This document shows positions 40,560 to 63,439 of a DNA stretch of 64,000 nt, in pieces. The notes below the pieces were generated by a model, which did not search any database, had not been told where the DNA came from, and saw only the letters and a list, made by a program, of their open reading frames with translations. Each line of letters begins with the position of its first letter. The first letter of the stretch is position 1. The DNA comes from a virus (Duplodnaviria; Caudoviricetes): positions 1 through 64,000 of IMG/VR virus record IMGVR_UViG_3300038345_000118. One strand, written 5' to 3'. The translations under genes and the position numbers were made by a program.

Positions 40560-40584
40560 ACGCTATGAATTTTGACAAACAAAA

Positions 40585-42563: not shown

Positions 42564-42647
42564 ATCCTTTAACATATTTTTTGTGCTGGTTTTTGGCAAA
42601 AATCAATATAATCTTTTTCAAAAACCAATATGATTTTAAAAAGTTAA

Positions 42648-42759: not shown

Positions 42760-42867
42760 ATCGCTTTCCGTATCGCTTAGGGCATTTTGCTCGTTTTTGT
42801 GACTATGTTTTAACTTTTTTTATGGGGTTATTTTCAACGGCTCAAATTCCTCATTTTCTCATTTTCT

Positions 42868-43951: not shown

Positions 43952-44195
43952 TTTAAGTTAAGAGTGAAGAGTGAAGAGTGAAGTATCCACTCCCTCCCCT
44001 CGGGGAGGGTCGGGGTGGGGGTCATAAATCCGTTTTCAGAATTGTGTAATACAATTCCAGAAGTTCGTCACGGGTGAGAGTAACCTGACGGTGAAACCCT
44101 TCGGAGTCCGTTCTGGTCACTATCCACATATCAGACTTCCCATCCTTCTTCAAATCAACATTCATGTAAGTGAAGAGTGAAGAATTTTTTAAAGG

Positions 44196-44732: not shown

Positions 44733-44774
44733 TTCACTTTAATATTAATATTATTGCGTTATTGCGTGATAACG

Positions 44775-45927: not shown

Positions 45928-45971
45928 AAAAGCGCCGCCAACCCAAAAAGCTACAACAGGGTCGGCAGCGC
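45928..45971 (-). terminator. Terminator-like hairpin in the leader of the 45.9-42.9 kb operon
   Basis: GCGCTGCCGACCC/GGGTTGGCGGCGC followed by TTTT on minus. Confidence 0.5.
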
Positions 45972-47516: not shown

Positions 47517-47523
47517 TTAGGCA

Positions 47524-48363
47524 TTATTTCCTCATGTCTTTGCCTTTAAATTCAATGGCGCGGACGATGGAGCGCAGGCGGCTAATGACCTCGTTGCCGT
47601 AGCGTTCCTGTATAGATAGCGGGTAACGCGGGTCATTGACGGGTGTGGTGGAGAGATTAGTGGTGATGATGAGCAGGTTTCCGTTCTGTTCCGCAGCGTC
47701 GCACAACTGGTAGAACGAGTCGTCTGGATTTCCGTAGTACTTTGCAGGTTCGCGTCCGAGACCGTCGATGATGACGATGCGCTCTTTCAGCAGGTCGTTG
47801 ACCTTTGCTCTCATCTCAGTGGCCTTAACCGCAGGCACTTTTCGTCCGAGAATAACCGGCAGTATCTTCTCGCAGATAACTGTCTTTCCAAGTCCGCTAA
47901 TGCCAACGCAGAGCAGCCCCCTACCCCGGTTGTCGGTCAGCCATTCTGCCACCTCGTCGTAAGCTGGAATCCACTGTACTTTGTCGCCCAGGAAATGTTG
48001 AAGTCCTTTCTTCAACCGCTCATGCGCGTTTGGTATAATTATATGCGGCCGTTGCAGATATGGGCCAGACGTTTCGTTTTGCAGAAAGTCAACGGGTGCT
48101 GACGCTTTGCTCTCCGCAATGCGATAGTTGAGTCTGACACCGGGTTTGAAACTGGAGTCAAGAGCCCATTTCATCATGGGCACGTGAATCTCCTCGATGT
48201 ATTCAAAGACATAGCGGCTGGGCAGGCACAACACTACCGCGTTCTGCTCTTCGTCGTAGCGCTCGCAAATGATATCCTTGAACCATACATCAAAGACGTG
48301 CTGGCTCACCTTCAGCCGGATGAGTTGCTGGCATTGGTTCCAGAGTTGCTGCATATTTTCCAT
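47524..48363 (-). CDS. DnaA N-terminal-domain / DnaC-IstB-like ATPase fusion
   Basis: LWNQCQQLIRLKVSQHVFDVWFKDI...LPSRYVFEYIEE resembles DnaA domain I; VGISGLGKT Walker A, IIIDGLGRE and IITTNL motifs. Confidence 0.75.
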   Translation of the reverse strand: MENMQQLWNQCQQLIRLKVSQHVFDVWFKDIICERYDEEQNAVVLCLPSRYVFEYIEEIHVPMMKWALDSSFKPGVRLNYRIAESKASAPVDFLQNETSGPYLQRPHIIIPNAHERLKKGLQHFLGDKVQWIPAYDEVAEWLTDNRGRGLLCVGISGLGKTVICEKILPVILGRKVPAVKATEMRAKVNDLLKERIVIIDGLGREPAKYYGNPDDSFYQLCDAAEQNGNLLIITTNLSTTPVNDPRYPLSIQERYGNEVISRLRSIVRAIEFKGKDMRK

Positions 48364-48368
48364 GATGA

Positions 48369-49394
48369 CTATTTCTTATCGTTTCCAAAGAGTTCCATTC
48401 CGCTGTCTGTCGGCTGCTGCACTACGGGTTCAGGCTCTACGGATAGCGTTTTATAAGTTGTCTTGTTTTGCCGGTTCCGTTGTTCTATTGCCTTCTGAGT
48501 TTCAAGAAGGCCCTGCTTGATGTTACGCCCAAGATCGGTGAGGTGTATATGAAAGGCTATAGACTCCGGCGTGCCGCGTTTCTTTCCCGGCGGGTATATA
48601 AACTCGTATTCGAATGTACAGTCGATGCGGTCGGCGGCTTCGAGGATTTCCCGTCGAGCCGGTTCCAGCACACGCTTCTTGAAGTCGTTGATGTCACGGT
48701 ATTTGTCAACGGTAGCCTTCTTAGTCTCCTTGTCGTAAGTCGTCAGGAGTATCTTCCGTAATTTCTCGTAGCTGATGACCCATGTGCCGAGTTGCTTGTT
48801 AGCGTTGATGAGCAGGTAAATACGTCCGGCATAGTTGCTGGAGAAGAGGAAGATAGCATCTTTCAGGTAGCGATGGTAAGGCGTAATGCGGAATAGGTCC
48901 TTGGCCGTCGTCTCCGTCATGTGCAAATAGATATTCTGGCGACGCTTTCCCGGCACGTCCTTGTCTATATCGACGACTGGAAACGCCACGGTGTATCTCA
49001 TTTTCCCCTCCACCTCCTTTTCATAGACGATGGACTGCATGGACTTAGCCGCCGTATCCACGTCGTTGTAGTGCTGCGGTTCTATGCCAAGCTCAGAATA
49101 AGCCACCTTGAAGGTAAGATAGCGTGAGCGGTCATCGGGCGAGATAGGCTTGTAGTCTTCGCTGTCAAAAAGGTCTCCGATAAGTCCCTCCTTTGACTTT
49201 CTTTCGAGCGCCTTCTTGATTTTACCCTGCAGCTTCTCCATGATGGTAGTCTGGATGCGTGTCTGCATCATCGACATTTCACCGTTTAGATAAGTGAATG
49301 TGATGGGCTGCGTGATCATCTTTCGCTGTTCAGCGGGAACGCTGCTGATAATTTCCTGCTTCAGCTGTTCAGCCTTACGTGACTTTCTTGCCAT
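48369..49394 (-). CDS. Plasmid replication initiator (Rep_3 / RepA-like), probable start MARKS at 49394
   Basis: FSSNYAGRIYLLI...ISYEKLRKIL...YRDINDFKKRVLEPARREI is Rep_3-like; adjacent to an iteron array. Confidence 0.8.
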   Translation of the reverse strand: MARKSRKAEQLKQEIISSVPAEQRKMITQPITFTYLNGEMSMMQTRIQTTIMEKLQGKIKKALERKSKEGLIGDLFDSEDYKPISPDDRSRYLTFKVAYSELGIEPQHYNDVDTAAKSMQSIVYEKEVEGKMRYTVAFPVVDIDKDVPGKRRQNIYLHMTETTAKDLFRITPYHRYLKDAIFLFSSNYAGRIYLLINANKQLGTWVISYEKLRKILLTTYDKETKKATVDKYRDINDFKKRVLEPARREILEAADRIDCTFEYEFIYPPGKKRGTPESIAFHIHLTDLGRNIKQGLLETQKAIEQRNRQNKTTYKTLSVEPEPVVQQPTDSGMELFGNDKK

Positions 49395-49560
49395 AATGTG
49401 TATCTTTAAAATATTACCATTGACATGGGACCGTTGTAGCCAAATCCCTGCATTCGGTGGCAAAGTTACAAATTTGTCCGAGAAGTTCCAAGCGTTTTCC
49501 CCTTTATTTTCTGATGTTTAGAAAACCTTTAACTTTTGTTAGTATTTTAAAAATCGGTAA

Positions 49561-49788
49561 AAGTTACGGAAATGTCCGAGTTTGACGGCGTGCGGCGGTT
49601 AAGAAAGTTACGGAAATGTCCGAGAACAGTTCCGCTTTTGTCTGAAAAATAATAAAACATGTTCCGTTTTTGTCCGGAATCATTTCCGAAACCGTCTGAA
49701 AAGAGTTACGGTTTTGTCGGAAACATCTTCCGTAACTGTCTGAAAACACTTCCGTTTTTGTCCGCAACAAGTTCCGTTTTTGTCCGTG
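49561..49788 (+). repeat. Iteron array of the plasmid origin (9 copies of a 20-bp unit, mostly 22-bp period)
   Basis: Units at 49561, 49605, 49627, 49659, 49681, 49703, 49725, 49747 and 49769; consensus NNGTT(A/C)CGNNNNTGTC(C/T)GNN; further copies at 49463 and inverted near 49989-50028; AT-rich tract follows. Confidence 0.85.
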
Positions 49789-50127
49789 AATATTTTGTAT
49801 CTTGCTATTAATAAGCAAGTTAGGCGTACCTAATATATACTATTCTTTATTATACTAATATGCAGATCATTCAAATAACCCGTTTTTATATTTCCTTTTT
49901 TATTCTTTAGAATTATGCAGAAAGTACTCTCTGACAGTAAGTTACTGATAATCAGCACGGTTTTTCAATAACACATAAAATGTATTTTCGGACAAAAACG
50001 TAACTTTAAAATTCGGACAGATTTGTAACTCGCGGGTAATATATGCGCACGTCATGCATGCGTATTAATTATGTAAATACTAAAAAAGCCCACCAGTAAA
50101 AGGTGGGCTTGAAAGTGTGGATGCTGG

Positions 50128-50544
50128 TCAATAGACTCTGGTGAATGTTACTTCGTAACTTAATGGTTTAGTTTTGTTTTTGATGATGAGCTTGTCGCCC
50201 GAAATTCTATATTCCCAGGAGAATGGGCCTTCTTCCAAATCATCATAGTCGCTTTGTATAATCACATATTCACCAATTATCTTTCCGTTTTTTGCTTCGT
50301 ATTTAAATTCTGCCCAGATACCTAAGTTGCATTCGTAATAGCCCGTTCCGGTTTTAAGGAAGGTCAATTTCTCCACCATTTTGTTTTCTGTATCTTCGTA
50401 CCTCCAGGTGCCAACAATGCTGTTAGCTGGTTCCTCTTTGTCATCGTCGTTGCTACCGCTGCAGGCATTGAAGCAGATGGATGTGAGGAAAGCAAGTGCC
50501 AGGACTGCCAGGCGGCTTGCAAAAGTGAATGTCTTTGATTTCAT
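50128..50544 (-). CDS. Lipocalin-like lipoprotein
   Basis: Signal peptide with FNAC lipobox; SIVGTWRY motif; lower-GC appearance. Confidence 0.75.
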   Translation of the reverse strand: MKSKTFTFASRLAVLALAFLTSICFNACSGSNDDDKEEPANSIVGTWRYEDTENKMVEKLTFLKTGTGYYECNLGIWAEFKYEAKNGKIIGEYVIIQSDYDDLEEGPFSWEYRISGDKLIIKNKTKPLSYEVTFTRVY

Positions 50545-50553
50545 GTTTTTGCT

Positions 50554-50617
50554 CTATTGAATTATTGTAATATTGTATTATTGTTATTGTGCAATATTGC
50601 ATTATCACATTATTGCG
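50554..50617. repeat. parS-like array 3 (about eight 8-bp units)
   Basis: CTATTGAA TTATTGTA ATATTGTA TTATTGTT ... ATATTGCA. Confidence 0.7.
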
Positions 50618-50981
50618 CTACAGTCTTACGGCCTTTCCATCCGTATTCATTAGGAAGAGACAGGGCTTCGTTACGTTGTTCGGTTGTAATTACCCCCTGT
50701 TGTTCGAGTCCAATAAGGATGGTCTCGAAGAAGAACCGCTTTGCGGTTAGATCTTTGTCCTCTGCAAATCTCGTGGCAAGTCGGTGGATGGACTTTGGGA
50801 GGAAGCATAGTGCCCCGACGGGTTTTTCGGCTGCGAGTCCGGTAGGTTCTTCGACTTCGGATGAAGAGTTGCTATCCCCCACCCTGCTTTCAATGGCACG
50901 TTTGCGGCGCAGGATTTCTTCTGGTGTCTCGTTAAGGATCTGCGCCGGCTTTTCTGATTTCTTTTTGCTTAGTGCTGACAT
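50610..50981 (-). CDS. Small partition partner protein (type Ib ParG/omega-like centromere binder)
   Basis: Directly downstream of parA; disordered N-terminus plus LCFLPKSIHRLATRFAED ribbon-helix-helix-like C-terminus; flanked by repeat arrays. Confidence 0.6.
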   Translation of the reverse strand: MSALSKKKSEKPAQILNETPEEILRRKRAIESRVGDSNSSSEVEEPTGLAAEKPVGALCFLPKSIHRLATRFAEDKDLTAKRFFFETILIGLEQQGVITTEQRNEALSLPNEYGWKGRKTVAQ

Positions 50982-50993
50982 AGTTGTATGGTT

Positions 50994-51153
50994 TTATTGA
51001 ATTATTGTTATATTGCTATATTGCTTTATCGAATTATTGCAATAACGTTATATTGTAATATTGTTGTATCGTGATATCGTTATAACGTAATAATGTAATA
51101 TCGAAATATTGTAATATAGTTATACTGCAATATTGTATTATTGCAATAATGTT
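50994..51153. repeat. parS-like array 2: twenty contiguous 8-bp units (consensus WTATTGYW)
   Basis: Unbroken 8-bp register from 50994 to 51153 between parA and its partner gene. Confidence 0.85.
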
Positions 51154-52052
51154 TTAGTGCGCTTAATGATTTCATTGGCGAGAAGTGTGAACTCTTCGCG
51201 TGGTATGTCGGCGCGTGGGGTGGAGTAGACGCTTGTGAACTCGCGCTGGCTTTTGCTGACGGCTTCGCGTTCTGAGATGCTGACAGGCAGTATTTCCTTG
51301 CCGTAACGTGATTTGAGTTGTTCTTCTGCCTCGCGCTGTCCTTTGATATATGCCTTACGCCGGGTTATCAGGAATCCGAGGTTAGTCAGTTCATCGTTTT
51401 CACTCTCGCGTATTTCCTGGATGTATGCCAGGTAGTTCTGCAGTCCGTTGAGTGCGAATCCTTCGAGGTTGATGGGAATCAGCACGGCATTGACGGCGAT
51501 CAGGATGTTGTCGATAAGGACTTGCGGTCCGACGGGCGAGTCAATCAGGATGAAGTCGAAATCCGTCATCCAGTCGGTGATGCCTTCGCCGGTATGATCA
51601 TCCGGTGCTTTCTGCAAGGCCCGGGTTAGTTTCATGGCCGGGTTGCGCATGGTGGGAAGCTGCTGGTCCACCTTGTTCATAATCGAGGTGGACGGGCAGT
51701 AGTAGAGTCCCGACTCGCTCCGGTAGACGGGGATGGGTGCATCCTCACACAGTACGTGGTAGATGGTGGGGTAGTGCTGCAGTTCGAGGTCTGGGTTCCA
51801 GTCGGTACAGCTGGAGAGGTTAGCTTGCCGGTCCATGTCGATGACCATGACGCGGTAGCCTTGCAAGTGCAGGGCCATTGCCAGATTGAGTGTGGTCGTG
51901 GTTTTACCCACGCCACCTTTGTAGTTGCCGATGCCGATGACGGCACGCAGCTGTGTCTTGCGTTTTTTTACCATAATGTTGTAGCTTTTATTTGAAATTG
52001 TATTTGCTCCTATATCAGGATGTTGTAGCGAATCCTTGGAGGAACGGTGCAA
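51138..52052 (-). CDS. parA: ParA-family partition ATPase (likely start MVKKR near 51974)
   Basis: Deviant Walker A NYKGGVGKTTT, VMVIDMDRQANL, FDFILIDSP, VLIPI. Confidence 0.93.
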   Translation of the reverse strand: MHRSSKDSLQHPDIGANTISNKSYNIMVKKRKTQLRAVIGIGNYKGGVGKTTTTLNLAMALHLQGYRVMVIDMDRQANLSSCTDWNPDLELQHYPTIYHVLCEDAPIPVYRSESGLYYCPSTSIMNKVDQQLPTMRNPAMKLTRALQKAPDDHTGEGITDWMTDFDFILIDSPVGPQVLIDNILIAVNAVLIPINLEGFALNGLQNYLAYIQEIRESENDELTNLGFLITRRKAYIKGQREAEEQLKSRYGKEILPVSISEREAVSKSQREFTSVYSTPRADIPREEFTLLANEIIKRTKTLLQ

Positions 52053-52137
52053 AGATAGGTAAAAGTTTTCAAACTATTGCAATATTGCAGTATAAAAAAT
52101 GTGAATTATTGCAATATTGCAGTAAAATCGTATTGCG
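52051..52137 (-). promoter_or_regulatory. parA promoter overlapped by parS-like array 1
   Basis: TATCTTTG at 52051-52058 (minus); CTATTGCA/ATATTGCA/TTATTGCA units in 8-bp register at 52074-52137. Confidence 0.65.
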
Positions 52138-52262
52138 AATGGTCTTATCGGGGAGTACCCTGCATGAAAGTTTGCCCTTGATTCGGTGTTCAACATTCAT
52201 TATCTTGCGGTAAAGAAAACAACAAAGATGGGCTGCAACACAGTTGCTGCTTACGTAAAACT

Positions 52263-53114
52263 ATGACAGGGGAATTGCAGGAGAAAGTGAACCGTTCTGT
52301 CCGGCTGATACAGGCGGCCGGTGCTGACGGAAGCGTCGTTGAGGTATCATACTCAGGCGGGAAGGACTCTGACGTTATCTTGGAACTGACACGCATGGCC
52401 GGAATCAAATTCCGTGCTATCTACAAGAATACGTCAATAGATCCTCCGGGAACCATCAGGCATGCCCTGGAACAAGGGGCTGAGGTAATGAGACCCGAAA
52501 AGACTTTCTTTCAGTTGTTAGAGGAAAACGGCATGCCTAACCGTTGGCAGCGCCACTGTTGCCGATATCTGAAAGAGTACAAGGTGCTTGAACGCAACAT
52601 ACAGGGAATCCGGAAGTGTGAGAGTACTAAAAGGGAGCAAGGCTACAACGAACCGACGGAGTGTCGCGTCTACGGAAAGGGTCGCAAGAAGCAGACTGCC
52701 GAGGCATTCTATCCCATTCTTGACTGGACGGATGATGATGTCGTTGAATTTATCACGGAGCGCGGCATCAAGGTGCATCCGCTCTATTACCGTGAGGACG
52801 GCACCATCGACGCAAGTAGAAGGCTGGGGTGTATGTGTTGTCCGCTTGCCTACTACAAGAAGCGTATTGACTATTTCAAGCGATATCCCGGCATGGTGCG
52901 TGCCTATTGCCGTTCGGCACAGAAATACCGGGACGCACACCCCGACGTAGAGACCGTGAAGAAATACGGCGATGTCTATGAATGGTTTACCCGTGAAGTG
53001 TTCTTTGAGAAGCAAAACGAATGGGAAAACCATAAGACGGTAACGCAATTTACCCCCCCCCATTACAAACAGTTTCTTGAACGGTTTTTCGGCATTGAGC
53101 TGACTTTTAAATAA
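52263..53114 (+). CDS. Phosphoadenosine phosphosulfate (PAPS) reductase-family protein
   Basis: PP-motif SYSGGKDS, CCRYLKE, GIRKCES, YPILDWT, RLGCMCCP. Confidence 0.88.
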   Translation: MTGELQEKVNRSVRLIQAAGADGSVVEVSYSGGKDSDVILELTRMAGIKFRAIYKNTSIDPPGTIRHALEQGAEVMRPEKTFFQLLEENGMPNRWQRHCCRYLKEYKVLERNIQGIRKCESTKREQGYNEPTECRVYGKGRKKQTAEAFYPILDWTDDDVVEFITERGIKVHPLYYREDGTIDASRRLGCMCCPLAYYKKRIDYFKRYPGMVRAYCRSAQKYRDAHPDVETVKKYGDVYEWFTREVFFEKQNEWENHKTVTQFTPPHYKQFLERFFGIELTFK

Positions 53115-53167
53115 TTATTAAATAACGGCTGCGGCGAAACCGCAGCTTACGAGAAAAATTAAGAATT

Positions 53168-53554
53168 ATGGAAAACGAACAGAGAAAGAATTACAGCATT
53201 AAGATTGACTGCCTGAAACTGAAGGGTGCTTTTATGAAGAACCTGACGGGGAAGACGGCCACCAAGCGATGTCTGATTATCCCGGTGGACGACAACGAGT
53301 GTATGTACCTTGGCGAGAAGGGCTGCTATCTGAACATCGTCGGTTACGAGTTGCAGAACTCACAGTACGGCGACACCCACCTGCTGAAAGGAGATTTGCC
53401 GAAAGAAGTGCGTGAGCGCATGACCGAAGAGGAGCGTAACGCCATACCCATTCTCGGGAACATGCGGCCCATCAAACCGCAGCAGATGCAGGTGACGGGC
53501 AGTGTGTCGATGGATGCACCGGACGGACAACAGCAGGATGATCTTCCATTCTGA
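53168..53554 (+). CDS. Probable single-stranded DNA-binding protein
   Basis: Beta-rich small protein ending QQQDDLPF, the SSB C-terminal tip motif. Confidence 0.55.
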   Translation: MENEQRKNYSIKIDCLKLKGAFMKNLTGKTATKRCLIIPVDDNECMYLGEKGCYLNIVGYELQNSQYGDTHLLKGDLPKEVRERMTEEERNAIPILGNMRPIKPQQMQVTGSVSMDAPDGQQQDDLPF

Positions 53555-53651
53555 CAATGGCTGCCCTTGATTTTGCGATACAGGAAAGGTACATTGCTGG
53601 TGAATAGATTAAAAACATCTGCTATGACATAGCAGCATACAAGACAGAATT

Positions 53652-54839
53652 ATGGTACGGAAAATACAGAGTGACGAATATCTGAAACGTTACGATAAAA
53701 TGACCTTGGCAGAACGCCAGGCATACAAGGACAGGGTAGGGCAGTGGCTGCGCTCTGGGGGACGATTGCTGTCCGTTAGGGCTGCCGACTTTGACGCCCG
53801 CCTGCAAAACGTACTGATGGTCAGCATCAGTTGGAATGACGCAGAGTGCCAGGCATTCGAGGCGGGAGCACATCTTTTGAGTGCGCTGGTGAACAGTGCA
53901 GACACATGGCTTCCCGATTTGCTATATATTAAGGCAGCAAAGAGGGCTATCAACAATATGATAAGAGCACTCTCTTCCATCTCCTTCATTGACACGAAGG
54001 GAGCAGGTGCGCCTGTGAATCAGAAACCGAAGGAGGAGCCTTCGGGAAAAACCCGAAAAGAAGCGGAGGCCGTCGGAGGAGGTTATATACCCACCGGAAA
54101 ACCGGCGGGCACGGTGGCTGACACGAAAGCGGGCACGGTAGCTGACACGAAAGCGGGCACGGTGGCTGTAACGTCGGCGGGCAAGAAGCCTGTAGAAAAA
54201 CCAACGGTCACGGTGACTGCCGTGCCGCCACGGCCTAAGCATATCGACCAGTATGTGCATCTTCTTCCGGTGAAGACACAGGAGCGTGCGGCGAAGGTGA
54301 AAGACCTGTTGCGCGAACTTGATTATGCCAGAGAGAAGGCACGGCTGCTGATGGATTCCCCACAGGCCAGTCCTGACGATCGTGCGGCCTGGGCCAAGAA
54401 GGCTACTTCCTGCGACAATGCCGTGAGAAGCATCTACAAGGAACTGGATGCAGAGTGGGATAAGCTGGTGAAGAGCGGCCGTATAGAGGTTGATGTGTTT
54501 GGCAATGCGAGAGTGGTTGCCGACGGAGAACCGTCGGGCACGGTGGCGGAGCAGGAGAAGCCGGAGCTGACCTCTGAGCAGAAGCACCGGAGGCGGGAGC
54601 TACGGAAGTGGCTTATTGACACACGGCGCGGTTCGGAGGGTAAGGCCCGTGAAAAGCGCATCGAGCAGTGGAAGGTGAACATCCGTGAGTACCTGACGCT
54701 GGAGCCTCTCGAAACGGCATTGAAGGATGAGAAGCTCGTTGTGGCTGCAGAACATTTCGGAGTTGATATTAAGGCTGCGGCAGAATCGCAGCATACTAAA
54801 AAAGCGACATCCGAGAGGAAACCAACCAAACAACAATAA
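53652..54839 (+). CDS. Hypothetical phage protein with AGTVADTK tandem repeats
   Basis: 395-aa ORF; 24-bp tandem unit near 54106-54170. Confidence 0.7.
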   Translation: MVRKIQSDEYLKRYDKMTLAERQAYKDRVGQWLRSGGRLLSVRAADFDARLQNVLMVSISWNDAECQAFEAGAHLLSALVNSADTWLPDLLYIKAAKRAINNMIRALSSISFIDTKGAGAPVNQKPKEEPSGKTRKEAEAVGGGYIPTGKPAGTVADTKAGTVADTKAGTVAVTSAGKKPVEKPTVTVTAVPPRPKHIDQYVHLLPVKTQERAAKVKDLLRELDYAREKARLLMDSPQASPDDRAAWAKKATSCDNAVRSIYKELDAEWDKLVKSGRIEVDVFGNARVVADGEPSGTVAEQEKPELTSEQKHRRRELRKWLIDTRRGSEGKAREKRIEQWKVNIREYLTLEPLETALKDEKLVVAAEHFGVDIKAAAESQHTKKATSERKPTKQQ

Positions 54840-54857
54840 ACCAACACAAAAACGACT

Positions 54858-55403
54858 ATGACTTTTCATTCGATAGTGAGGCAGTGGTGCCAGACGTACA
54901 AGCCGATGCTGGATAACCCGGAGAATGGGAACCGGCGGTTTTACCTGACGGACTCTACCGCTGGTGTGGTGGAGATGGCGAAGGGTATCAGTAATAAGTT
55001 TTCTCCATTCGTGATGATGGAGAGCAACGTGGAGGGCGGAGGTCCGATAGCGAGGCCCTCCAGGAACTACCCTATATACTTTTTCGTCAGGGCTCGTGAC
55101 ATGGCCGACGGCGATGCCGCTGCCGAGGCGAAGGAAGAGGCGTGGTACCACGCACAGCAATACCTGACGTGGATCAAGGACAAGCACGACAGGGAAATTG
55201 CCGAGAATATCGACGGCGACTATGCGCGTATAGACCTGGACAACGCCCTGCTTGACATTACAACCGTAGGTCCTCTGGAGAACGGATGGTACGGAGTGCT
55301 CATACAGTTTGAGCGCGAGGAGCCGCTGAATTTGTGCGTGGATGAGGAGATGTATATAGCCCCACCCCTGCCCCTCCCCGAAGAAGAGGGGAGTAGTTTC
55401 TAA
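54858..55403 (+). CDS. Hypothetical phage protein, possibly head-tail/tail-completion type
   Basis: 181-aa acidic ORF in the virion block; function is inference only. Confidence 0.55.
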   Translation: MTFHSIVRQWCQTYKPMLDNPENGNRRFYLTDSTAGVVEMAKGISNKFSPFVMMESNVEGGGPIARPSRNYPIYFFVRARDMADGDAAAEAKEEAWYHAQQYLTWIKDKHDREIAENIDGDYARIDLDNALLDITTVGPLENGWYGVLIQFEREEPLNLCVDEEMYIAPPLPLPEEEGSSF

Positions 55404-55421
55404 CAAAACAAAACGCAGACG

Positions 55422-55775
55422 ATGGGAAAAGGGAGAGATGAAGGGAACGAGATTCACGTTACCGACATTAATGCGCTGAAGGACAACACGCAGGCTGCGG
55501 TGGAAGGATTCGCCGAACGGTGGATTTCCATGCCGTCGTTCACTGAAGATTGTGAGGTGATGGATGTAAGGCAGTTGCGTGATGCGATGGGAATACGGGC
55601 GACGATTGAAGCCGGAGACCCGTGGCCCGCTGCCGAGAAATTGTTGTTGAACCTTGGATTCCGCTGGCATTGGTTAGGCAATTCACGGGTGATGTTCCTA
55701 CGGGAACGCGACGATTACACGGGTACGAGTGCCGGCGGTGGTGACGGATGGGATGACGGAGAGGAGGTAGATTAG
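55422..55775 (+). CDS. Hypothetical protein
   Basis: Packed ORF. Confidence 0.55.
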   Translation: MGKGRDEGNEIHVTDINALKDNTQAAVEGFAERWISMPSFTEDCEVMDVRQLRDAMGIRATIEAGDPWPAAEKLLLNLGFRWHWLGNSRVMFLRERDDYTGTSAGGGDGWDDGEEVD

Positions 55776-55863
55776 AGTGAAGAGTGAAGAGTGAAGAATT
55801 GGGCTGCGACCGAGTCGCAGCATACAATTAAGCATTGTAAGATATAAACTTTTTAAATAACAA

Positions 55864-56532
55864 ATGACAATGAAAAAGAATTTTTTTGAACAACTGTTGG
55901 GCGTGCTGCTGTTGGTAGCGACAGCCCTGATGATTAACAGCTGCAAGGGTTGTAAACAAAGTGAAGAGCAAAAAGTGAAGAGTGAAGAAGCTGCTACCGC
56001 AGCTGTTTACCACGACTATGACGGGGTAGTGCAGGACTTCACAACAGGCGTGAGCCAGATTCAGGCTTTGCACCGTCAGACCGTTTTCCATCTTGCCGGA
56101 GGCGTTAACTACGAGTGGCGCAACTCGCGTGTCATCCTGAACGACACCATTACGGCAGAGAATATCGACAACCTGCATGTGACGGACGTCAACGACGTGT
56201 TCTGCTACTGGAATGAGCGCGGTCCGTGGGTGCAGTATGTCAACTCCAATATTAAGAATGGTCTGCAGATTCCCTGGCCTATTAATGACGTATGGATTGA
56301 GGACAGAGACCTGAGTAACCTGCCGATTGAACTGAGTGCCGAGGATGCGCTGCTACGTCTGAAGGAATGGAACGGTGTTATCCCCTCTGCGAATTTCCTT
56401 ACGCTGCGACTGCCTGTCGGTCCGAAGGATTGTAATGCGCAATGGGTTATCGGCAATGTCTATAATACGATATTCATTGACGCGGTGACAGGAGATATAA
56501 CGGATAGCAACCCTGCGTTCCCGCGAAAGTAA
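55864..56532 (+). CDS. Lipoprotein with C-terminal PepSY-like motif
   Basis: Signal peptide ending INSC; IFIDAVTGDI. Confidence 0.7.
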   Translation: MTMKKNFFEQLLGVLLLVATALMINSCKGCKQSEEQKVKSEEAATAAVYHDYDGVVQDFTTGVSQIQALHRQTVFHLAGGVNYEWRNSRVILNDTITAENIDNLHVTDVNDVFCYWNERGPWVQYVNSNIKNGLQIPWPINDVWIEDRDLSNLPIELSAEDALLRLKEWNGVIPSANFLTLRLPVGPKDCNAQWVIGNVYNTIFIDAVTGDITDSNPAFPRK

Positions 56533-56733
56533 CGGGGATGGGCTTCGTAGGCCCGAAGGGTCTATATCCCATCCCCAGAAACGGCGCGACGGTCTCTAAA
56601 ACCGTGACGGCCATATTTTAGTAATCATCATCAGCCATGCCGCCTTGCTTTCCTCGGTGTGGCTGCTGATAGAGCTGCAACACAGTTGCAGCATACGGAA
56701 AAGGGATAGACAAAAAAAACGCGATAATGAATT

Positions 56734-57513
56734 ATGGCAACGATTAAAATCGGGAGTAGGGGAGAGGCTGTCAAACAGATTCAGCGGTCGCTGGGTCTGA
56801 ACCCTGTCGATGGTGTCTTTGGCGAGAAGACAGCTGCTGCCGTTCGGGTTTTCCAGCAGGCGGCAGGACTTGTTGCTGACGGCATCGTAGGCCCTGCCAC
56901 ATTAGCGAAGCTGAAGGAGTGTTCGCTTGACATCGTTTCCGGGTATATCTACAAGCACATCACCCGTTGCTCCAGCAGGCCCCTGAAGTATATTGCCATC
57001 CACTACACGGCTGGCGGTAACAGTCGGAGGGGTGCAGCCATGGCGAACCGCAATGCGTTTCTTAGTCGTAACGCCTCTGCCGACTTTGTGGTGGATGACG
57101 AGCAGATCGTGCAGGTCAATCCTGACATCAGGAACTACTACTGTTGGGCTGTCGGTGACAAGAAGAATACGAGTAGCGGTGGCGGCAGTCTCTACGGCAT
57201 TGCAACAAACAAGAATACGATCAGCATTGAAATCTGTTCTAATCTTCGCACTGGCACCACTGCTGCCATTCCCAACCACGAAGGATGGTCGTTTACGGAC
57301 AAAGCACTTGATCGCGCACTCAGGCTTGTTCGCTATCTGATGCGCGTGTATGGCATTCCCAAGAGCAACGTTATCCGGCACTATGATGTGAGCGGTAAGC
57401 TTTGCCCCGGCATTATCGGGTGGAATAGCGCCTATCTCTATACGACTGCCGGAAAAGCGACTTCCGTCAAGAACAGCAGCGAGAAATGGCTGGCGTTCAA
57501 GGGGAGGATTTAG
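56734..57513 (+). CDS. Endolysin: peptidoglycan-binding domain plus N-acetylmuramoyl-L-alanine amidase (amidase_2)
   Basis: GSRGEAVKQIQ...DGVFGEKT...DGIVGPAT; YIAIHYTA, SADFVVD, SIEIC, IRHYDVSGKLCPG. Confidence 0.92.
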   Translation: MATIKIGSRGEAVKQIQRSLGLNPVDGVFGEKTAAAVRVFQQAAGLVADGIVGPATLAKLKECSLDIVSGYIYKHITRCSSRPLKYIAIHYTAGGNSRRGAAMANRNAFLSRNASADFVVDDEQIVQVNPDIRNYYCWAVGDKKNTSSGGGSLYGIATNKNTISIEICSNLRTGTTAAIPNHEGWSFTDKALDRALRLVRYLMRVYGIPKSNVIRHYDVSGKLCPGIIGWNSAYLYTTAGKATSVKNSSEKWLAFKGRI

Positions 57514-57574
57514 AGTGAAGAAATGCTGCGACGAAATCGCAGCCTACAATTAAGCATTAAGCATTAAAAAGGCT

Positions 57575-58255
57575 ATGGCACAACCGAGTGTATTACCAGA
57601 TGGATTGATGAGTGGGTCGCTGATTCACTTTGAGAAAGGCGTTCCCATTGACGACCTCGACCTGAAGCCTGTTCATCGGGAGCGTCTGGCACGTGTAGCG
57701 CACGTCTATTGGATATGGGTCAAGAATCCCTTTCTTGATGCCTTTGGTATGTTCAAGCAACTGGCCAAGGGAAAATATTCTGACAAGTCGAGTGAGTGGC
57801 GGGCAGCCCAGCGCGATAAGCTGCTGTTCGATTTTGTGGTGGAAAATGTCTCTGCCCCGAGTCGAAAAGAGAGCGAGGCGAAGGTGCGCGTGACTGCCGA
57901 CCGTCTGATGCAGATGGGTGCTCAGACCGACAACGGTCGCGACATGGAAGCCGGTGCCAAGCTGCTGATGAAGCTCGACCGTCTGGACCAGCCCGAAGAT
58001 CAGAATGCCGACCTTAGCAAGGTGGCATTCCTGCCAAGCGTGGTTGTTACCGACATCCGCGAGGTGGATGACACGAAGGAGAACTACGATGATGCCGAGA
58101 CGAAGCGTATCATGGCGAAATACGGCGGCTATGTTGACGAGAAGCGCAAGCTGGTTGAAGACAAGGTAGCGGTGATGGAGGCACGTAATACCGGAAAACA
58201 AAGTTGCGATGAAATCGCAACATACGGAGAAGAAGAGACTGGCGAGGAAGGATGA
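57575..58255 (+). CDS. Probable terminase small subunit
   Basis: Helical 226-aa protein whose stop overlaps the large terminase start; positional inference. Confidence 0.5.
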   Translation: MAQPSVLPDGLMSGSLIHFEKGVPIDDLDLKPVHRERLARVAHVYWIWVKNPFLDAFGMFKQLAKGKYSDKSSEWRAAQRDKLLFDFVVENVSAPSRKESEAKVRVTADRLMQMGAQTDNGRDMEAGAKLLMKLDRLDQPEDQNADLSKVAFLPSVVVTDIREVDDTKENYDDAETKRIMAKYGGYVDEKRKLVEDKVAVMEARNTGKQSCDEIATYGEEETGEEG

Positions 58256-60165
58256 GCAGGATAGGAACAAACCCCAATGTGAGCAGCGACCAGCTGGAGG
58301 CGAAGATGCTGCCGAACATAGAGGATGTGAAGCCCGAAGAGGGTGGGGCAGTGGACCTCTTAGGCGACGGTGTGCATAAGATATATCTGCATCGTGGCCA
58401 GCTCGACATCTACAACTTTGGTTCCAGGAGTACGAAGGTGAGGGCAGCCCGCGGTTTTGGCAAGACCTCGTATATCGGTCTGCACATGGTGAAGTGCGTG
58501 CTCGGACTGAGACGTCAGATGGGCGGTTTCGTCGGAGCCAGTGCAAAGCAGCTCTACACCCGCACGATGCCTAACGCCCTGAAGGTGGTCAGTTCGCTGG
58601 GTTTCGAGAAATTCTTCTTTCTTGGTCAGGCACCTGCCAAGCTACGTTGGGAGATGCCGTTGGCCCGTCCGCGTCAATGGGAGAACTGCGTTCATTTCCA
58701 GAACGGTTTCGTTTGGCAGATGCTCTCCATGGCCGTGAAGGGAAGTGCCAACGGTTTGAACCTTGCCGCTCTTATCGGTGACGAGACCAAATATCTTCCG
58801 TGGTCGCGTGTCAAGGAGGAAGTGCTGCCAACGCTCCGTGGCGACTTTATGCCTGTGTCGGCACGAAAGACCGAGCAGAAACGTTGGGGATATGGCACTG
58901 ACCCGAAGGTGAATCCCTATTGGCTGAGTCAGCTTTGGGTTTCCGATGCCGGTCTGACCCAAAGAGAATGCGTATGGGAGAAGGAAGAGCAGTATGAGAC
59001 CAAGGACATCAACGCGCAGATTGCGGAGATGCTGGCCGAACTGAAATACCTTGAAAAGGCCAACCCACGGATGGCCTTGGAGCTGGCTCAAAACGAAATG
59101 TTCCTGAAGAAGCTCCACCTGTTGCGGTCACAGTCGGAAACCTTCTGGAATTTCTCTTCCATCGAGAATGCCGCCATGTTAGGCGGCGAGGCATGGATCC
59201 GTCAGATGAAGCGCGAGCTGCCCGACCTGATGTTCCGCATCCAGATACTCGGTCAGAAGAAAGGCGCGGCGAAGGACGGCTATTACGCCAACTGGGACAT
59301 AGACATTCACGGCTACACCTGCGACGACATCACCACCTACGACCTGATCGCCGACAAGTTCACGGTCAAGCAGAAAGGCAAGGCACTGGACGTGCAGAAC
59401 TGGCCGACGGCCTACGAGACGGAGACCATCGATCTCGACCAGGCACAGCGTGCCGGTGAGAGTTGCGTTCTTGACACCGACCTGGACTACAACCAGCCGT
59501 TGTGTATTGCCATCGACTGCAATGCCAACCTGAACTGCGCGGTGATAGGACAGACGCGGATGTTCGAGGGACGTGAAAGCCTGCTTGTCTTGAAGTCGAT
59601 GTTCGTGATGAACGAGCGCAAGCTGCGCAGTCTCTGTGCCGATGTGACCAATTACTATCGCACCTTCCTCCGTCGGAACGGAGAGATCCTGTTTTTCTAC
59701 ACCCCCACCATCAAGCAGGGAGGCAGTACCGCCTACGCTGTGGAGGGAGCCGAGGATTTCCGTTTTGACCGTGTGGTGGTTAACGAGCTGCAGTCGTTGG
59801 GTTGGAAGGTGACGGACATTGAGATACCCGTCATCCGCGACAAGTATCAAGTCATCAACGACATCCTTTCTGGCAGGACTGGCCCGTTCCTGCGCGTCAA
59901 CAGCGAGGCAGGCCGTAACGACTATCTGATTACCGCTATTGAGAATGCCGGACTGATACCCGGCACGTTCAAGAAGGACAAGAGCAAAGAGAAGTTGAAG
60001 AGCACCAGCGAGGAATCGTTGGGTGGCGATCCCCGTACCCGGACGGACATTACCGATGCACTTGACGATCTGGTACTGGGCGTAAAGTTCAGGAACGTGG
60101 CGAAGCAGAAGGTGGGCGGGCAGTTGCGCGGGCGGTTCAGGAACCTGGTGATGCCGAGAGGGTGA
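58252..60165 (+). CDS. Terminase large subunit
   Basis: Walker A AARGFGKT, Walker B LIGDE, nuclease-domain IAIDCN and C-terminal DITDALD. Confidence 0.82.
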   Translation: MSRIGTNPNVSSDQLEAKMLPNIEDVKPEEGGAVDLLGDGVHKIYLHRGQLDIYNFGSRSTKVRAARGFGKTSYIGLHMVKCVLGLRRQMGGFVGASAKQLYTRTMPNALKVVSSLGFEKFFFLGQAPAKLRWEMPLARPRQWENCVHFQNGFVWQMLSMAVKGSANGLNLAALIGDETKYLPWSRVKEEVLPTLRGDFMPVSARKTEQKRWGYGTDPKVNPYWLSQLWVSDAGLTQRECVWEKEEQYETKDINAQIAEMLAELKYLEKANPRMALELAQNEMFLKKLHLLRSQSETFWNFSSIENAAMLGGEAWIRQMKRELPDLMFRIQILGQKKGAAKDGYYANWDIDIHGYTCDDITTYDLIADKFTVKQKGKALDVQNWPTAYETETIDLDQAQRAGESCVLDTDLDYNQPLCIAIDCNANLNCAVIGQTRMFEGRESLLVLKSMFVMNERKLRSLCADVTNYYRTFLRRNGEILFFYTPTIKQGGSTAYAVEGAEDFRFDRVVVNELQSLGWKVTDIEIPVIRDKYQVINDILSGRTGPFLRVNSEAGRNDYLITAIENAGLIPGTFKKDKSKEKLKSTSEESLGGDPRTRTDITDALDDLVLGVKFRNVAKQKVGGQLRGRFRNLVMPRG

Positions 60166-60234
60166 TTTGGCTGCTGCTGAGCAGCAGCATACGGGAAAGA
60201 ATTTTTAAATTCATTCAATAAGATTCAAAACACT

Positions 60235-60738
60235 ATGGAAGAGCAGACAAAGAAAGTCGAATACCTGTTTGATGTGGGCGACATTGTGAAGATGAAAAAA
60301 GGAGAATCCTTTTTCATTGGAAACAAGGAATACCATGAGCACCTTAAAGTGGTATTTCGGTTCTTTGACGGAGAATTTCCATCTTATGTAATCGAAACAG
60401 AAGATGGAGTCGGAACGCCTTTAAGAGAATATGACCTTGACTTGGAAGAGAAATGCTGCGCACCTGTATGTGAGCAAGAAGAGCAGGCGCCTATCGACGG
60501 AAGAGACAAGAAACTCTATCTTGTCAGGAACGGGCTTGGGAATTTCCATGTCATTGCCCATTCTTTTGACGAAGCGGCTGATGTTCTTGAAGGACGGCTC
60601 AACCAAGCGACCTACGGTTTTACCAGTAAGAGACAAGTGAAGAGTATCGACATTGTTGCGACACAGCATTTCTTTAACGGCAAGCAATGGTTCTGTGGTG
60701 AAGAAGGGCATCTGATTATTGACGGTGACAAGCCATGA
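60235..60738 (+). CDS. Hypothetical two-domain protein
   Basis: FDVGDIVKMK is SH3-like; stop overlaps the methyltransferase start. Confidence 0.55.
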   Translation: MEEQTKKVEYLFDVGDIVKMKKGESFFIGNKEYHEHLKVVFRFFDGEFPSYVIETEDGVGTPLREYDLDLEEKCCAPVCEQEEQAPIDGRDKKLYLVRNGLGNFHVIAHSFDEAADVLEGRLNQATYGFTSKRQVKSIDIVATQHFFNGKQWFCGEEGHLIIDGDKP

Positions 60739-61454
60739 TTGAACTTGACACAATCTATAACGAAGACTGCCTGGAGGGGATGCGTCGCATCCCTGACGGG
60801 AGTGTGGACCTGATAGTCTGCGACCCGCCGTATGTAATCGGGAACCAGGGCGGCGGCTTCTGGAGCAAGAACCCGGAGGCATCGCATTATAACGCCCGTG
60901 GCACGCGCAAGGGTATGGAAAGGCTTAGTAACATCAAAGACGGTTTCGACACAGCCATTCTTGACGAGATGTGCCGCGTGATGAAGCGGGTGAACATTTA
61001 CGTGTGGTGCTCACAGAAGCAGATACGGCCCTACCTCGAATACTTCGTTGACGGGAAAGGCTGCAACTGGAACCTGCTCTGCTGGCACAAGACGAATCCG
61101 ATTCCTGCCTGCGGGAACAAATACCTGAATGATACGGAATACATTCTGTTCTTCCGCGAGAAGGGTGTGCGGGTAGAGGGACGTTACGACACCAAGCGCA
61201 CGTTTTACACGTCGCTGCGAAACCAGCAGGAGAACATCGAATACGGTCATCCTACTGTGAAGCCGTGTCAGATTATCCAAAACCTTATCGTGAACAGCAG
61301 CCCAGTGGGGGGGGTAATTTTAGACCCGTTCATAGGCAGTGGAACGACCGCTATTGCCGCTATGCGCGAAGGGCGGCATTACATCGGGTTTGAGATTAAC
61401 GAGCAGTATTACGAGACAGCAGTAAGGAGGATTGAAACGGAAAAAGCAAATTAA
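60735..61454 (+). CDS. N4-C/N6-A DNA methyltransferase (beta class)
   Basis: DLIVCDPPY, HPTVKP, ILDPFIGSGTT. Confidence 0.93.
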   Translation: MIELDTIYNEDCLEGMRRIPDGSVDLIVCDPPYVIGNQGGGFWSKNPEASHYNARGTRKGMERLSNIKDGFDTAILDEMCRVMKRVNIYVWCSQKQIRPYLEYFVDGKGCNWNLLCWHKTNPIPACGNKYLNDTEYILFFREKGVRVEGRYDTKRTFYTSLRNQQENIEYGHPTVKPCQIIQNLIVNSSPVGGVILDPFIGSGTTAIAAMREGRHYIGFEINEQYYETAVRRIETEKAN

Positions 61455-61552
61455 ATTTTGAAATTGCAAAACATTTTTGGAAGAAATTGCAATGCCCTTG
61501 ATTTCTGGATGTAAGATAGATATATTGGCGAGTAGAAACAAATGCGAAAGAT

Positions 61553-63439
61553 ATGAGAAAGAAAAATAAAACTCCACTCGTACACAAGGTTAGTAGTAGG
61601 CAGGAGTTTGAACGGCTGAACAAGGAGCTCAACGCCAGACGCTACATTGCCATCGATCTGCTGAAGAAAGGACGCACCAAAAGCTTCTCGTTAGGTGACA
61701 AAGACCCGTCGGATGGCGAAGCCAAGGACACGGCAACGTGCATGGGTAATGGCAGCTGGAGTACCGGCCCGCTGGTGCAGGTAGCCTGGCAATTTGACAG
61801 TCGCGACGAGAACGCCGTGACTGCTGTGTACGACAAGGACGGAAAGACGCCTCTCGGTCTTGGCTACATCAAATGGGGTCCCGGTAACAGCATTCCCTCC
61901 GTGATACCTCCTTTGGCGCAGTCGTCGCCATACACTGCCGCTCCGCTACGCTATATCGCAGACACTATCTGCGGTCTCGGACCGGCACTGATGTACCGTT
62001 TCCCCGACGGCACGCTGTGCGACATGAAGGACGCCGGCTACAAGATACTGCAACAGCTGGAGAAGAAACAGAAAGAGCAGGAGAAGGAAGGAGTTGTCAG
62101 CCTTGTTGACGATCTTGACACGACCGCAGACGCAACACGCCGACATTTCATCGGCGACTATGTGATGACAGACGGCGGCATTATGACGATCCAGGAAGCC
62201 AATACGCTTAGACTGGAGCCACGTGGCATATCTACCATGCCTCGCAATCTCGGTCCCGACTACTGGAACCGGCTCTATGCCGAATGGGAGCGCATCTGGC
62301 GTGGTTACGACGAGACCGACGAGCTGGAAATCAAGAGACACGTGATAGGAGCCAAGGACTTTATCGACCAGAACAACCTGAACCTGCACCTCTCGCAGTG
62401 TATGCAGGATCATGTATTCCTTGACATTTTCTATCCGACGGTTGGCTTTTCGGACAAAGGCTTACGCCGTTCATGGGCACCCCTTATCGACAAGGTTGAC
62501 ATGATACCCGCCCACAGCATCCGCCTGGAGAAACGCAATGAATACAACCACATCAACCATTGCTACGTGTCAGACCAATTCCGCACGCTTGGCATCGGCA
62601 CTGTGCGCACGGTCAGACCCGAAGAGACGCGGATCAAGATGTTTCCCGCCTGTATGCCGCAGCACCTTCTCAGCGACCTGCGCTACATCGTCAGCAGTAA
62701 CCAGAAGTCGCGCATCAACGCCCGTCCGATGTGGGTCGTGTGCCCTACCTTCTACCCGTCTCTCAACAAGCCCTACTATCCGCAACCCGCATGGTGGAGT
62801 ATCTTTACCAGTAAGGCTTTTGACTTCTCGGCCACCATTCTCTACGACAAGTATAAAGCACGTGAGAACAACACCACCTGGGGACGTATCCTTTACATCT
62901 CTCTTGACTACCTCGACCAGGTGTTTGCCGATGAAGGTTATCAGGGCAACAAGGAGAAGCAGCAGGAGTTTATCGGAGCGCTGGAAGACTCCATGGAACA
63001 GTTCTTGCAGCAGCGCGACAACCATGGCAAGACCATGCGCCAATGGATGTGGATCGGACAAGACGGAAAGGAACACCACAACGTAGAGATTGTGGATATC
63101 AAGGAAGCCTCCAACGATGCCGTCAAGGCCGGCAAGGAAGAGTTGGAACTTTCGACCTCGCCCATCTTCCTTGCTTTGCAGGTAGATCCCCGTCTTGTAG
63201 GTGTGCCGATGGTAGCGGCCTCGAACGGTGGTACGGCGCTGAGAGAAATGCAGTTGCTGAAGCAGCAGCAGCTTAACGTCCACCAGCGACTTTACCTCCA
63301 GTTCCTCAATGCGGTACTGAACTTCAACCAATGGGATGCCGACGGACGCGTAGCCTTCTACATCAAGCAGCAGACTTTCACCACGCTTGACAACAACAAG
63401 ACTGGGGTTATTGAGACGATTTCAGGGGAAGGGACGTAG
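61553..63439 (+). CDS. Probable portal protein
   Basis: 628 aa, just downstream of the terminase; YYPQPAW and IFLALQVDPRLVG...SNGGTALRE resemble Bacteroidales phage portals. Confidence 0.65.
   Translation: MRKKNKTPLVHKVSSRQEFERLNKELNARRYIAIDLLKKGRTKSFSLGDKDPSDGEAKDTATCMGNGSWSTGPLVQVAWQFDSRDENAVTAVYDKDGKTPLGLGYIKWGPGNSIPSVIPPLAQSSPYTAAPLRYIADTICGLGPALMYRFPDGTLCDMKDAGYKILQQLEKKQKEQEKEGVVSLVDDLDTTADATRRHFIGDYVMTDGGIMTIQEANTLRLEPRGISTMPRNLGPDYWNRLYAEWERIWRGYDETDELEIKRHVIGAKDFIDQNNLNLHLSQCMQDHVFLDIFYPTVGFSDKGLRRSWAPLIDKVDMIPAHSIRLEKRNEYNHINHCYVSDQFRTLGIGTVRTVRPEETRIKMFPACMPQHLLSDLRYIVSSNQKSRINARPMWVVCPTFYPSLNKPYYPQPAWWSIFTSKAFDFSATILYDKYKARENNTTWGRILYISLDYLDQVFADEGYQGNKEKQQEFIGALEDSMEQFLQQRDNHGKTMRQWMWIGQDGKEHHNVEIVDIKEASNDAVKAGKEELELSTSPIFLALQVDPRLVGVPMVAASNGGTALREMQLLKQQQLNVHQRLYLQFLNAVLNFNQWDADGRVAFYIKQQTFTTLDNNKTGVIETISGEGT

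Follow-up and report, generated by a model that had tools for sequence, protein, structure and literature searches.

A replication and partition block beside the late operon

The window analysed here is a 64,000-nucleotide stretch forming bases 1-64000 of a single 86,148-bp IMG/VR contig (record IMGVR_UViG_3300038345_000118), which is classed as "linear" in that database and has a CheckV completeness estimate of 72%. It derives from a tailed phage of approximately 105-125 kb from Bacteroidales (Prevotellaceae or Bacteroidaceae) of the rumen or gut. Genes left of about 47.5 kb point leftward and reach position 0, those from 52.3 kb onward point rightward as far as about 85 kb, and no tRNA genes were found in the 64-kb window. 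Between the two arms lies a block of replication and partition (rep/par) genes, placed back to back with a late operon that encodes endolysin, terminase and portal, then tape measure, protease and head proteins. The initial annotation, made from the letters alone, had listed a Rep initiator, iterons, ParA, a small partner gene, repeat arrays, a HigBA pair, endolysin, terminase and portal, and our analysis recovered each of them at or near the position it had been given. Relatives were found by searches with Rep and with the large terminase subunit (TerL). They comprise IMG/VR records (G001, 50.8 kb; G002, 24.8 kb; and G004, 109,175 bp and 92% complete) and contigs from bulk metagenomes binned with metagenome-assembled genomes (MAGs) of rumen Bacteroidaceae or Prevotellaceae (G006:C8, 113,572 bp; G007:C31, 109,831 bp; and G008:C7, 92,042 bp).

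The replication genes lie on the minus strand. The product of 48369-49463 is assigned to the Rep_3 family of iteron-binding replication initiators by its Rep3_C domain (Pfam, 32.1 bits against a cut-off of 21.1), which was also found in all five aligned orthologs. The companion Rep3_N domain was detected in two of those five and in the syntenic Rep of L085, and went undetected in the Rep of this contig; a profile of Rep had no match among PDB sequences. The annotated initiators of 41 PLSDB plasmids align with 77-80% of the length of Rep at 26-31% identity, and nearly all of these plasmids are from Bacteroidales (Bacteroides, Phocaeicola, Prevotella, and Segatella, including pBF9343). Directly downstream of rep, 47524-48363 encodes a predicted helicase loader in which DnaA domain I (Pfam DnaA_N, 37.4 bits) is fused to a DnaC-like AAA+ ATPase (PHROG 3277, DnaC-like helicase loader, 1.3e-17). 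Orthologs of this loader are present in six of six relatives at 40-52% identity.

Direct iterons of about 22 bp with the core GTTCCGTTTTTGTCCG occupy 49462-49792, one of them overlapping the start of rep. The 16-nt core is matched six times at three or fewer mismatches, against 0.67 matches expected, with all six inside 49629-50004, and this count was reached in none of 100 shuffles. A looser pattern finds nine direct copies at 49563-49771, and six stand in exact 22-bp phase (49661-49792). Two further copies, at 49989 and 50013, are inverted and close the origin region (49985-50030), giving about 12 cognate 22-bp iterons beside the Rep gene. The stretch at 49800-49935, which adjoins the iterons, reaches 70-78% A+T in 40-nt windows compared to about 50% contig-wide and is a candidate unwinding element; no DnaA boxes were found in the origin region at one or fewer mismatches. 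Each of the seven genomes compared, those of the window phage and six relatives, has tandem repeats of 21-22 bp ahead of rep. Their cores are alike where the Rep proteins are 57-71% identical, and unrelated in G004, G007, and G008, which carry other Rep_3-like genes. A Rep3_C domain, neighboring tandem iterons about two helical turns long, and an A+T-rich element are traits of the Rep_3 initiators, the class of F RepE, R6K pi, and pPS10 RepA.

Partition is predicted to depend on a ParA of 278 aa, a Walker-type ATPase without an N-terminal DNA-binding domain, read on the minus strand from a conserved ATG at 51974 (51138-51974); the longest open reading frame (ORF) extends to 52052 and would encode 304 aa. 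The protein matches Pfam AAA_31 (1.7e-34) and CbiA, PHROG 164 (ParA-like, 7.5e-47), and Soj/ParA structures (3.5e-20), with PDB 2oze, "Orf delta", among the structural matches. The AAA_31 match spans residues 38-223 of the 304-aa ORF, which puts its start at about residue 12 of the 278-aa form. ParA is 76-96% identical in five relatives, in which TerL is 62-73% and portal 55-70% identical. Its identity to the ParA proteins of Bacteroidota plasmids is about 30%.

The gene that always follows parA in the relatives, located here at 50610-50981 on the minus strand, encodes a 123-aa protein that we regard as the candidate ParA partner from its position and conservation. A total of 361 metagenome homologs at 70% identity or above were retrieved, none with a Pfam family. 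In an alignment of the protein (A3) the N-terminus is basic, the core is conserved, and a GW motif at the C-terminus is invariant. No homolog was present in PLSDB plasmids, and among 401 sampled Bacteroidales genomes the protein was found in G006 only. The AlphaFold2 monomer model has a pLDDT of 67, and Foldseek searches with it against PDB returned nothing below an E value of 1. Profile searches of PDB likewise returned nothing meaningful, and no similarity to ParG or omega was detectable. Inspection of the alignment suggests that the partner may be a ribbon-helix-helix protein. A predicted complex of ParA and partner scored 0.10 against a mark of 0.32, which is not evidence either way. A language-model comparison gave as a weak neighbor McdB, the ParA partner in carboxysome positioning (score 0.93, 166 shared features); this is a lead only. 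In both proteins the N-terminus is basic and a tryptophan at the C-terminus is invariant.

These genes are accompanied by three arrays built of the 8-bp unit TATTGnAA. The main array, a candidate centromere or operator of about 20 contiguous units, lies between parA and the partner gene (50995-51152). A second of about eight units lies downstream of the partner gene (50555-50616), and the third is in the divergent promoter region of parA and the late operon (52075-52121). Two-unit matches number 42 against 5.35 expected, with 37 of the 42 inside the three arrays, and arrays occur at the same three positions in all relatives. The unit changes with the type of ParA: it is CAATAnnn with the ParA type of the window phage and CACAACCn in G001 and G008, the ParA proteins of which are only 36% identical to that of the window phage. 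The co-variation of both kinds of site with their proteins, together with strong conservation, suggests that the replication and partition systems are both in use. The short predicted Walker ParA and the repeated candidate centromere sites near its operon are traits of type Ib partition modules. One further minus-strand gene, at 50128-50544 between the partner gene and the origin, appears to be accessory and confined to this strain; its DUF5640 match (26 bits) falls just below the Pfam cut-off, and no ortholog was found in the relatives.

The rightward operon begins with a PAPS-reductase-family gene at 52263-53114 (PAPS_reduct, 2.4e-17; PHROG 424), and all genes described here for this operon are on the plus strand. 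At 53652-54839 is a conserved 395-aa protein that heads the rightward operon in all relatives (39-60% identity in six); it has no family match. The endolysin (56734-57513) combines PG_binding_1 and Amidase_2 domains by Pfam and PHROG. A conserved 226-aa gene (57575-58255; 28-71% identity in all relatives) overlaps the start of TerL and by position is a possible small terminase, family searches having returned no match. The 637-aa TerL (58252-60165) and the 628-aa portal protein (61553-63439; 51-70% identity in relatives) matched neither Pfam nor PHROG and were assigned by tblastn. Proteins annotated as terminases in Microcystis phages align with TerL (E 2e-31; 24-26% identity, 76-89% coverage), and the portal aligns with the annotated portal of Polaribacter phage Leef_1 (E 2e-12) over its C-terminal 38% only. 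An N6/N4 DNA methyltransferase lies between them at 60735-61454 (Pfam N6_N4_Mtase, 9.5e-32; PHROG 67).

Beyond the window the contig encodes a tape measure protein of 2324 aa, a glycosyltransferase of the Stealth/DUF4422 kind, and a head protease of the S49 family. The capsid gene was not identified: the model of the one candidate (contig 77622-78902) had a pLDDT of 45 and was unusable, and tblastn matched a single unannotated phage. The glycosyltransferase, of 816 aa with Stealth CR2 and DUF4422 domains (contig 71721-74171), is placed between tape measure and head genes and is 55-62% identical in relatives. Tandem heptamers (AGTGAAG or AGAGTGA) occur at 55770-55990 and at 24019, 42642, 43310, 43956, and 44169, many of them intergenic spots. 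In two DNA runs the bin at 55.34-56.0 kb is covered about 4-8 times as deeply as the sequence on either side, and it is a hub of contig joints, which suggests a short element common to many other genomes.

Gene order and genome maps in the relatives

A comparison of the relatives ORF by ORF shows one gene order in common. The order early arm, loader, Rep, iterons, partner, ParA, and late operon is found in G001, G002, G004, G006:C8, G007:C31, and G008:C7 as well as in three ENA scaffolds from different samples. The continuity of the rep/par module with virion genes, as the initial annotation had described it, is thus a layout that recurs in at least eight independent assemblies. This bears directly on the suspicion that plasmid and phage fragments were joined during assembly, which the metagenomic origin of the contig might encourage, as might a relative in run X2 that matches 47.5-54.1 kb alone, at about 96.5% identity, and is divergent on both sides. 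Both junctions of the block recur in those assemblies, from different samples and studies, and contigs of the source run itself cross 44001-57553 in one unbroken piece. Because the block holds the same place in every family member, its junction with the late genes is not an assembly artefact, and because the junctions recur independently we consider a chimera refuted, with next to no probability left to it.

Rather, the X2 relative shows that the rep/par block moves as a cassette. Contigs of this relative break at 47480-47519 and at 54106-54168, the right-hand break falling in a 24-bp tandem repeat within the 395-aa gene, and these points look like the recombination boundaries of a mobile rep-par cassette.

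No terminal overlaps or inverted ends were found on this contig or on the six relatives, so the circularity of the relatives follows from permuted maps rather than from overlaps. The contigs of 109,175, 113,572, and 109,831 bp have a common gene order and end at different points of the map. The break in G007 separates the portal gene from the gene after it; six other assemblies have these two side by side, and when the ends of G007 are joined an unbroken frame of 435 codons results. G004 breaks within the protease gene, and G006 in a segment that G008 crosses whole. For a closer sub-lineage there are two assemblies of one phage, of 124,583 and 124,541 bp; TerL lies at about 70 kb in the first of them and at about 123 kb in the second. 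The phage contigs of the relatives have no host genes at their ends and carry no tyrosine (PF00589) or serine (PF00239) recombinase. We read these contigs as maps, circular or circularly permuted, of genomes that are not integrated. As to circularity, then, the contig under study gives no terminal overlap of its own, and it is the relatives that supply permuted, host-free maps. Integration at att sites, which would have undercut the initial annotation, finds no support in relatives that lack both host flanks and recombinase.

Measured against the family map, the contig lacks about 17-25 kb, including a giant fibre-like gene. In the relatives this gene encodes 1,796 to more than 3,929 aa (G006:C8:5522-13324, G004:C1:4342-9732, and G008:C7:80251-92040), and the G008:C7 contig ends inside it.

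Probable plasmid carriage, the lytic alternative and the terminal recombinase

Outside the rep/par block, the left arm combines family-wide genes with a strain-specific island. A gene at 20856-25742 on the minus strand encodes a 1628-aa methylase-helicase fusion (Helicase_C above its cut-off, Eco57I and SNF2 just below) that is kept in the family at 61-77% identity in four relatives; its architecture bears out the earlier description of a DarB-like gene. The far left (4974-11754) holds a second replication set that includes a 1159-aa primase-like protein with a DnaG-type zinc finger and a 1002-aa helicase, together with an exonuclease gene at 3432-4151; by analogy these genes could serve lytic replication, as oriL/RepL do in P1. 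A function was sought for the plus-strand gene at 46854-47516, and none was found.

The island spans 4.4 kb (38400-42850) and contains a TnpB gene (38609-40006, minus strand; OrfB_IS605 and a Cas12f-like TNB domain by Pfam), a 152-aa gene preceded by an antisense RNA, a HigBA pair, and an HU-HIG gene. The genes that flank it, 37854-38378 and 42868-43302, are direct neighbors in G004. What had been called a C4-like RNA proved to be a full-length match (1-79) to the Rfam c4-2 family (RF02944; C4 clan, CL00128) at 40582-40660 on the minus strand, with 45.7 bits against a gathering score of 41. The putative toxin-antitoxin (TA) pair (40988-41684, minus strand) consists of a Gp49/HigB-like toxin gene at 41268-41684 (PF05973, 84 bits), which also has an NCBIfam match to RelE/ParE-type toxins, overlapping by 23 nt a downstream HTH_3 antitoxin gene, higA, at 40988-41290 (PF01381, 54.6 bits). 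The c4-2 RNA is not an immunity element of the whole family; the TA pair and the antisense RNA lie outside the family core and support a temperate habit of this strain.

We consider that in lysogeny the phage probably does not integrate and persists instead as a circular plasmid of low copy number. In such a prophage, Rep bound to the iterons would melt the A+T-rich element and the loader would bring host DnaB, with iteron titration or handcuffing expected to keep the copy number low. The partner would bind the 8-bp arrays and ParA would segregate the copies, to which HigBA could add post-segregational killing in this strain. The c4-2 RNA may control the gene downstream of it, again in this strain, and the recombinase at 85.1 kb would invert a receptor-binding cassette rather than integrate the genome. 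The phage-plasmid reading put forward in the initial annotation remains the best supported, given the conserved and co-varying rep/par core, the host-free circular maps, and the plasmid-type Rep.

The statement of the initial annotation that no integrase is visible holds within the window only; the same contig encodes that tyrosine recombinase at 85100-86071, outside the window. The 323-aa protein has Phage_int_SAM_5 and PF00589 (73.6 bits) domains, an exact look-up of it found no record, and its stop codon lies 77 bp from the contig end. An integrative temperate phage might be proposed from this, in which the recombinase is the integrase, the contig stops at attP owing to the coexistence of integrated and excised forms, and rep/par serves a transient episome only. 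The two domains, the PHROG label "integrase", and the contig end 77 bp past the gene all fit such a phage, as might a 232-kb contig with the same module. Yet the recombinase gene is absent from every relative, full-circle ones included, and the other end of the contig consists of phage genes, not host genes. The protein is also short, Pfam shows no arm-binding domain beside the SAM_5 and catalytic domains, and its best NCBIfam scores are to Xer-type simple recombinases. Phage contigs of about 37-46 kb that are not related to this one encode copies 88-93% identical to it.

The surroundings of these homologs point to a different role. Directly after the recombinase stop, at 86073, is a 21-bp site, TTTTGTCCTGGCCGGACAAAT, with 7-bp inverted arms and a short spacer. 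In the loci of the homologs this site recurs inverted about 4 kb away within phage DNA, flanking esterase cassettes, and the two copies form a perfect inverted repeat in L057 and L059. In these two loci the distal site lies inside the 5' part of a minus-strand fibre-like gene. That gene and a plus-strand cassette that begins at the proximal site end in a common DUF4886 or GDSL (SGNH esterase) domain, and the site encodes the peptide FVLAGQI in both cassettes. The present contig holds the proximal site only, its assembly ending 57 bp past the 21-bp core; a break near the site would be expected if both orientations coexisted in the sample. By analogy with these loci, the recombinase is likely a host-range invertase and not a lysogeny integrase, and integrative lysogeny through it appears improbable. 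In Mu G, the P1 C segment, and the R64 shufflon, inversion swaps receptor-binding C-termini. The arrangement of the homologous loci resembles Mu Gin/G, P1 Cin/C, and the R64 Rci shufflon in that a recombinase gene abuts a site that recurs inverted in the 5' part of a fibre-like gene. Facing that gene is an alternative cassette that lacks a promoter and ends in the same esterase domain. It differs from those switches in that the full layout is seen here only in the homologous loci L057 and L059.

A virulent or pseudolysogenic phage is the other alternative to plasmid carriage. In that case Rep, iterons, and loader would be the phage's own origin, like lambda O/P, with no stable prophage, and the task of ParA and its partner would be to place or separate genomes as they replicate in the infected cell. 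Phages often replicate by means of an initiator paired with a loader, no repressor was found, and a permuted lytic genome would account just as well for the circular maps free of host DNA. On the other side, no part of the genome is more conserved than the partition genes with their centromere-like arrays, and resident plasmids of Bacteroidales use a Rep of this type. The genome also has a TA pair and an RNA of the immunity-type C4 clan, the contigs come from bulk metagenomes and fell into bins of Bacteroidales MAGs, and the second replication set of the left arm could serve lytic replication. RNA-library contigs (X23, X24) with 90-97% likeness cover rep, parA, and late genes alike; they may include DNA and do not discriminate. 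On balance we regard a purely lytic habit as unlikely.

Several observations weigh against carriage as a plasmid and deserve to be set out together. Plasmid carriage, copy number, and lysogeny are a reading of sequence, and the 86,148-bp contig is a linear incomplete fragment with no terminal direct or inverted repeats. No repressor or other lysogeny switch was identified, and a host-free circular map is equally expected of a virulent phage with headful packaging. No orthologs of HigBA and no c4-type RNA were found in the relatives, so that both are strain-specific. The recombinase is present on the contig, and its proposed role as an invertase comes from homologous loci. The partner is a candidate of an undescribed family, for which binding to the arrays and contact with ParA are predicted. 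Lastly, the 232,425-bp ENA contig (ERZ27280590 k141_69948), nearly twice the family genome size, carries the rep-par-late block once, with one copy each of the partner and TerL genes listed; it could reflect integration, a larger relative, or a misjoin.

The family was seen in gut metagenomes of cattle and sheep. A 10-kb query was complete in one bovine gut run, the probable source, and 38-47% of its words were found in runs from 10 further studies; the runs with matching words, from at least 11 studies overall, come from cattle, sheep, and related samples. Good descriptions of phage-plasmids exist for Enterobacteria, Firmicutes, and Actinobacteria. We found no published account of such Bacteroidales elements in the literature searched, and what is described here is most likely a whole family of a known kind, the phage-plasmid, that is barely documented in this phylum. 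We would give roughly even odds to a more specific proposal, namely a widespread ruminant-gut lineage of 105-125 kb in which an undescribed partner reads phased 8-bp arrays, Rep/iteron cassettes are swapped, and some members carry an esterase-cassette switch. If this were true, swapped Rep/iteron cassettes among syntenic phages would create incompatibility groups, no plasmid prophage system of the P1 style, dependent on partition, would have been documented in the phylum before this family, and replicons of large capacity for use in Prevotella and Bacteroides could readily be drawn from it. If plasmid carriage itself holds, these phages would provide a model for non-integrative lysogeny in the dominant rumen and gut phylum and a new ParA-adaptor family to study, and the compact 4.8-kb rep-par block (47.5-52.3 kb) might serve as a stable low-copy vector for Prevotella or Bacteroides.

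Comparison with known systems

In the sense of Pfeifer et al. 2021 (PMC7969092), a phage-plasmid combines virion, packaging, and lysis genes with plasmid replication and/or partition genes on one element and is kept outside the chromosome as a prophage. Both gene sets are found together here, and extrachromosomal upkeep is likely from the host-free circular maps of relatives that carry no recombinase. A comparison with P1 (Punavirus), the closest parallel according to the initial annotation, shows likeness of function without kinship of sequence. Both are tailed phages in a size class of about 100 kb with an iteron-regulated initiator and adjoining iterons, ParA-based partition with a centromere (a candidate one here), and a TA addiction pair. 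They also share a C4-clan antisense RNA, a DarB-like methylase-helicase, DNA methylases, and a probable recombinase-driven inversion of a receptor-binding cassette, performed in P1 by Cin on the C segment. No sequence kinship to P1 is detectable. Megablast of 47-63.5 kb against 50,697 phage records and against plasmids found no match, the nearest matches of TerL are in cyanophages and phages of Flavobacteriia (24-26% identity), and the portal likewise matches unrelated phages only. Rep is of the Rep_3 type of Bacteroidales plasmids, ParA is short and lacks the N-terminal DNA-binding domain, and in place of ParB there is a 123-aa partner of no known family, with arrays of 8-bp units as the candidate centromere. 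The candidate invertase is of the tyrosine rather than the serine type, no resolution system resembling Cre/lox was seen in the relatives, and the TA pair and c4 RNA are specific to this strain. The likeness to P1 is one of function and not of descent.

The partition module is closer in layout to type Ib systems such as ParF-ParG of TP228 and delta-omega of pSM19035. Like these, it has a short Walker ParA, a small partner gene directly downstream, and several short contiguous repeat arrays upstream of, between, and after the genes. Omega of pSM19035 binds contiguous 7-bp repeats, and the repeat unit here is 8 bp. Unlike the type Ib partners, the 123-aa protein has no detectable similarity to ParG, omega, or solved structures.

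Plasmids of Bacteroides and Prevotella, for example pBF9343 of B. fragilis NCTC 9343 (NC_006873.1), resemble the element in Rep (26-31% identity) and ParA (about 30%). Unlike it, they have no virion genes and are mostly typed as conjugative (31 of the 41 Rep-matching records). No close relative of TerL was found in PLSDB plasmids. Distant TerL relatives at 22% identity are encoded in the plasmid records NZ_AP025327.1 (Fulvitalea axinellae, 37.7 kb) and CP012855.1 (Persicobacter, 48.5 kb), and these marine Bacteroidota plasmids are possible further phage-plasmids of the phylum.

Within the phylum the nearest precedent is crAssphage (Carjivirus communis), which has two RepL genes and a TA system and has been classed as a phage-plasmid (PMC10983915, preprint). 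Pfeifer et al. considered that phage-plasmids had probably been missed in Bacteroides, where crAssphage was the sole case and a singleton (PMC7969092). The present phage resembles crAssphage in its host phylum, in the absence of an integrase, and in proposed extrachromosomal persistence. It differs from crAssphage, as that phage has been described, in possessing an iteron-type Rep with its own helicase loader, a ParA with a candidate partner, and centromere-like arrays.

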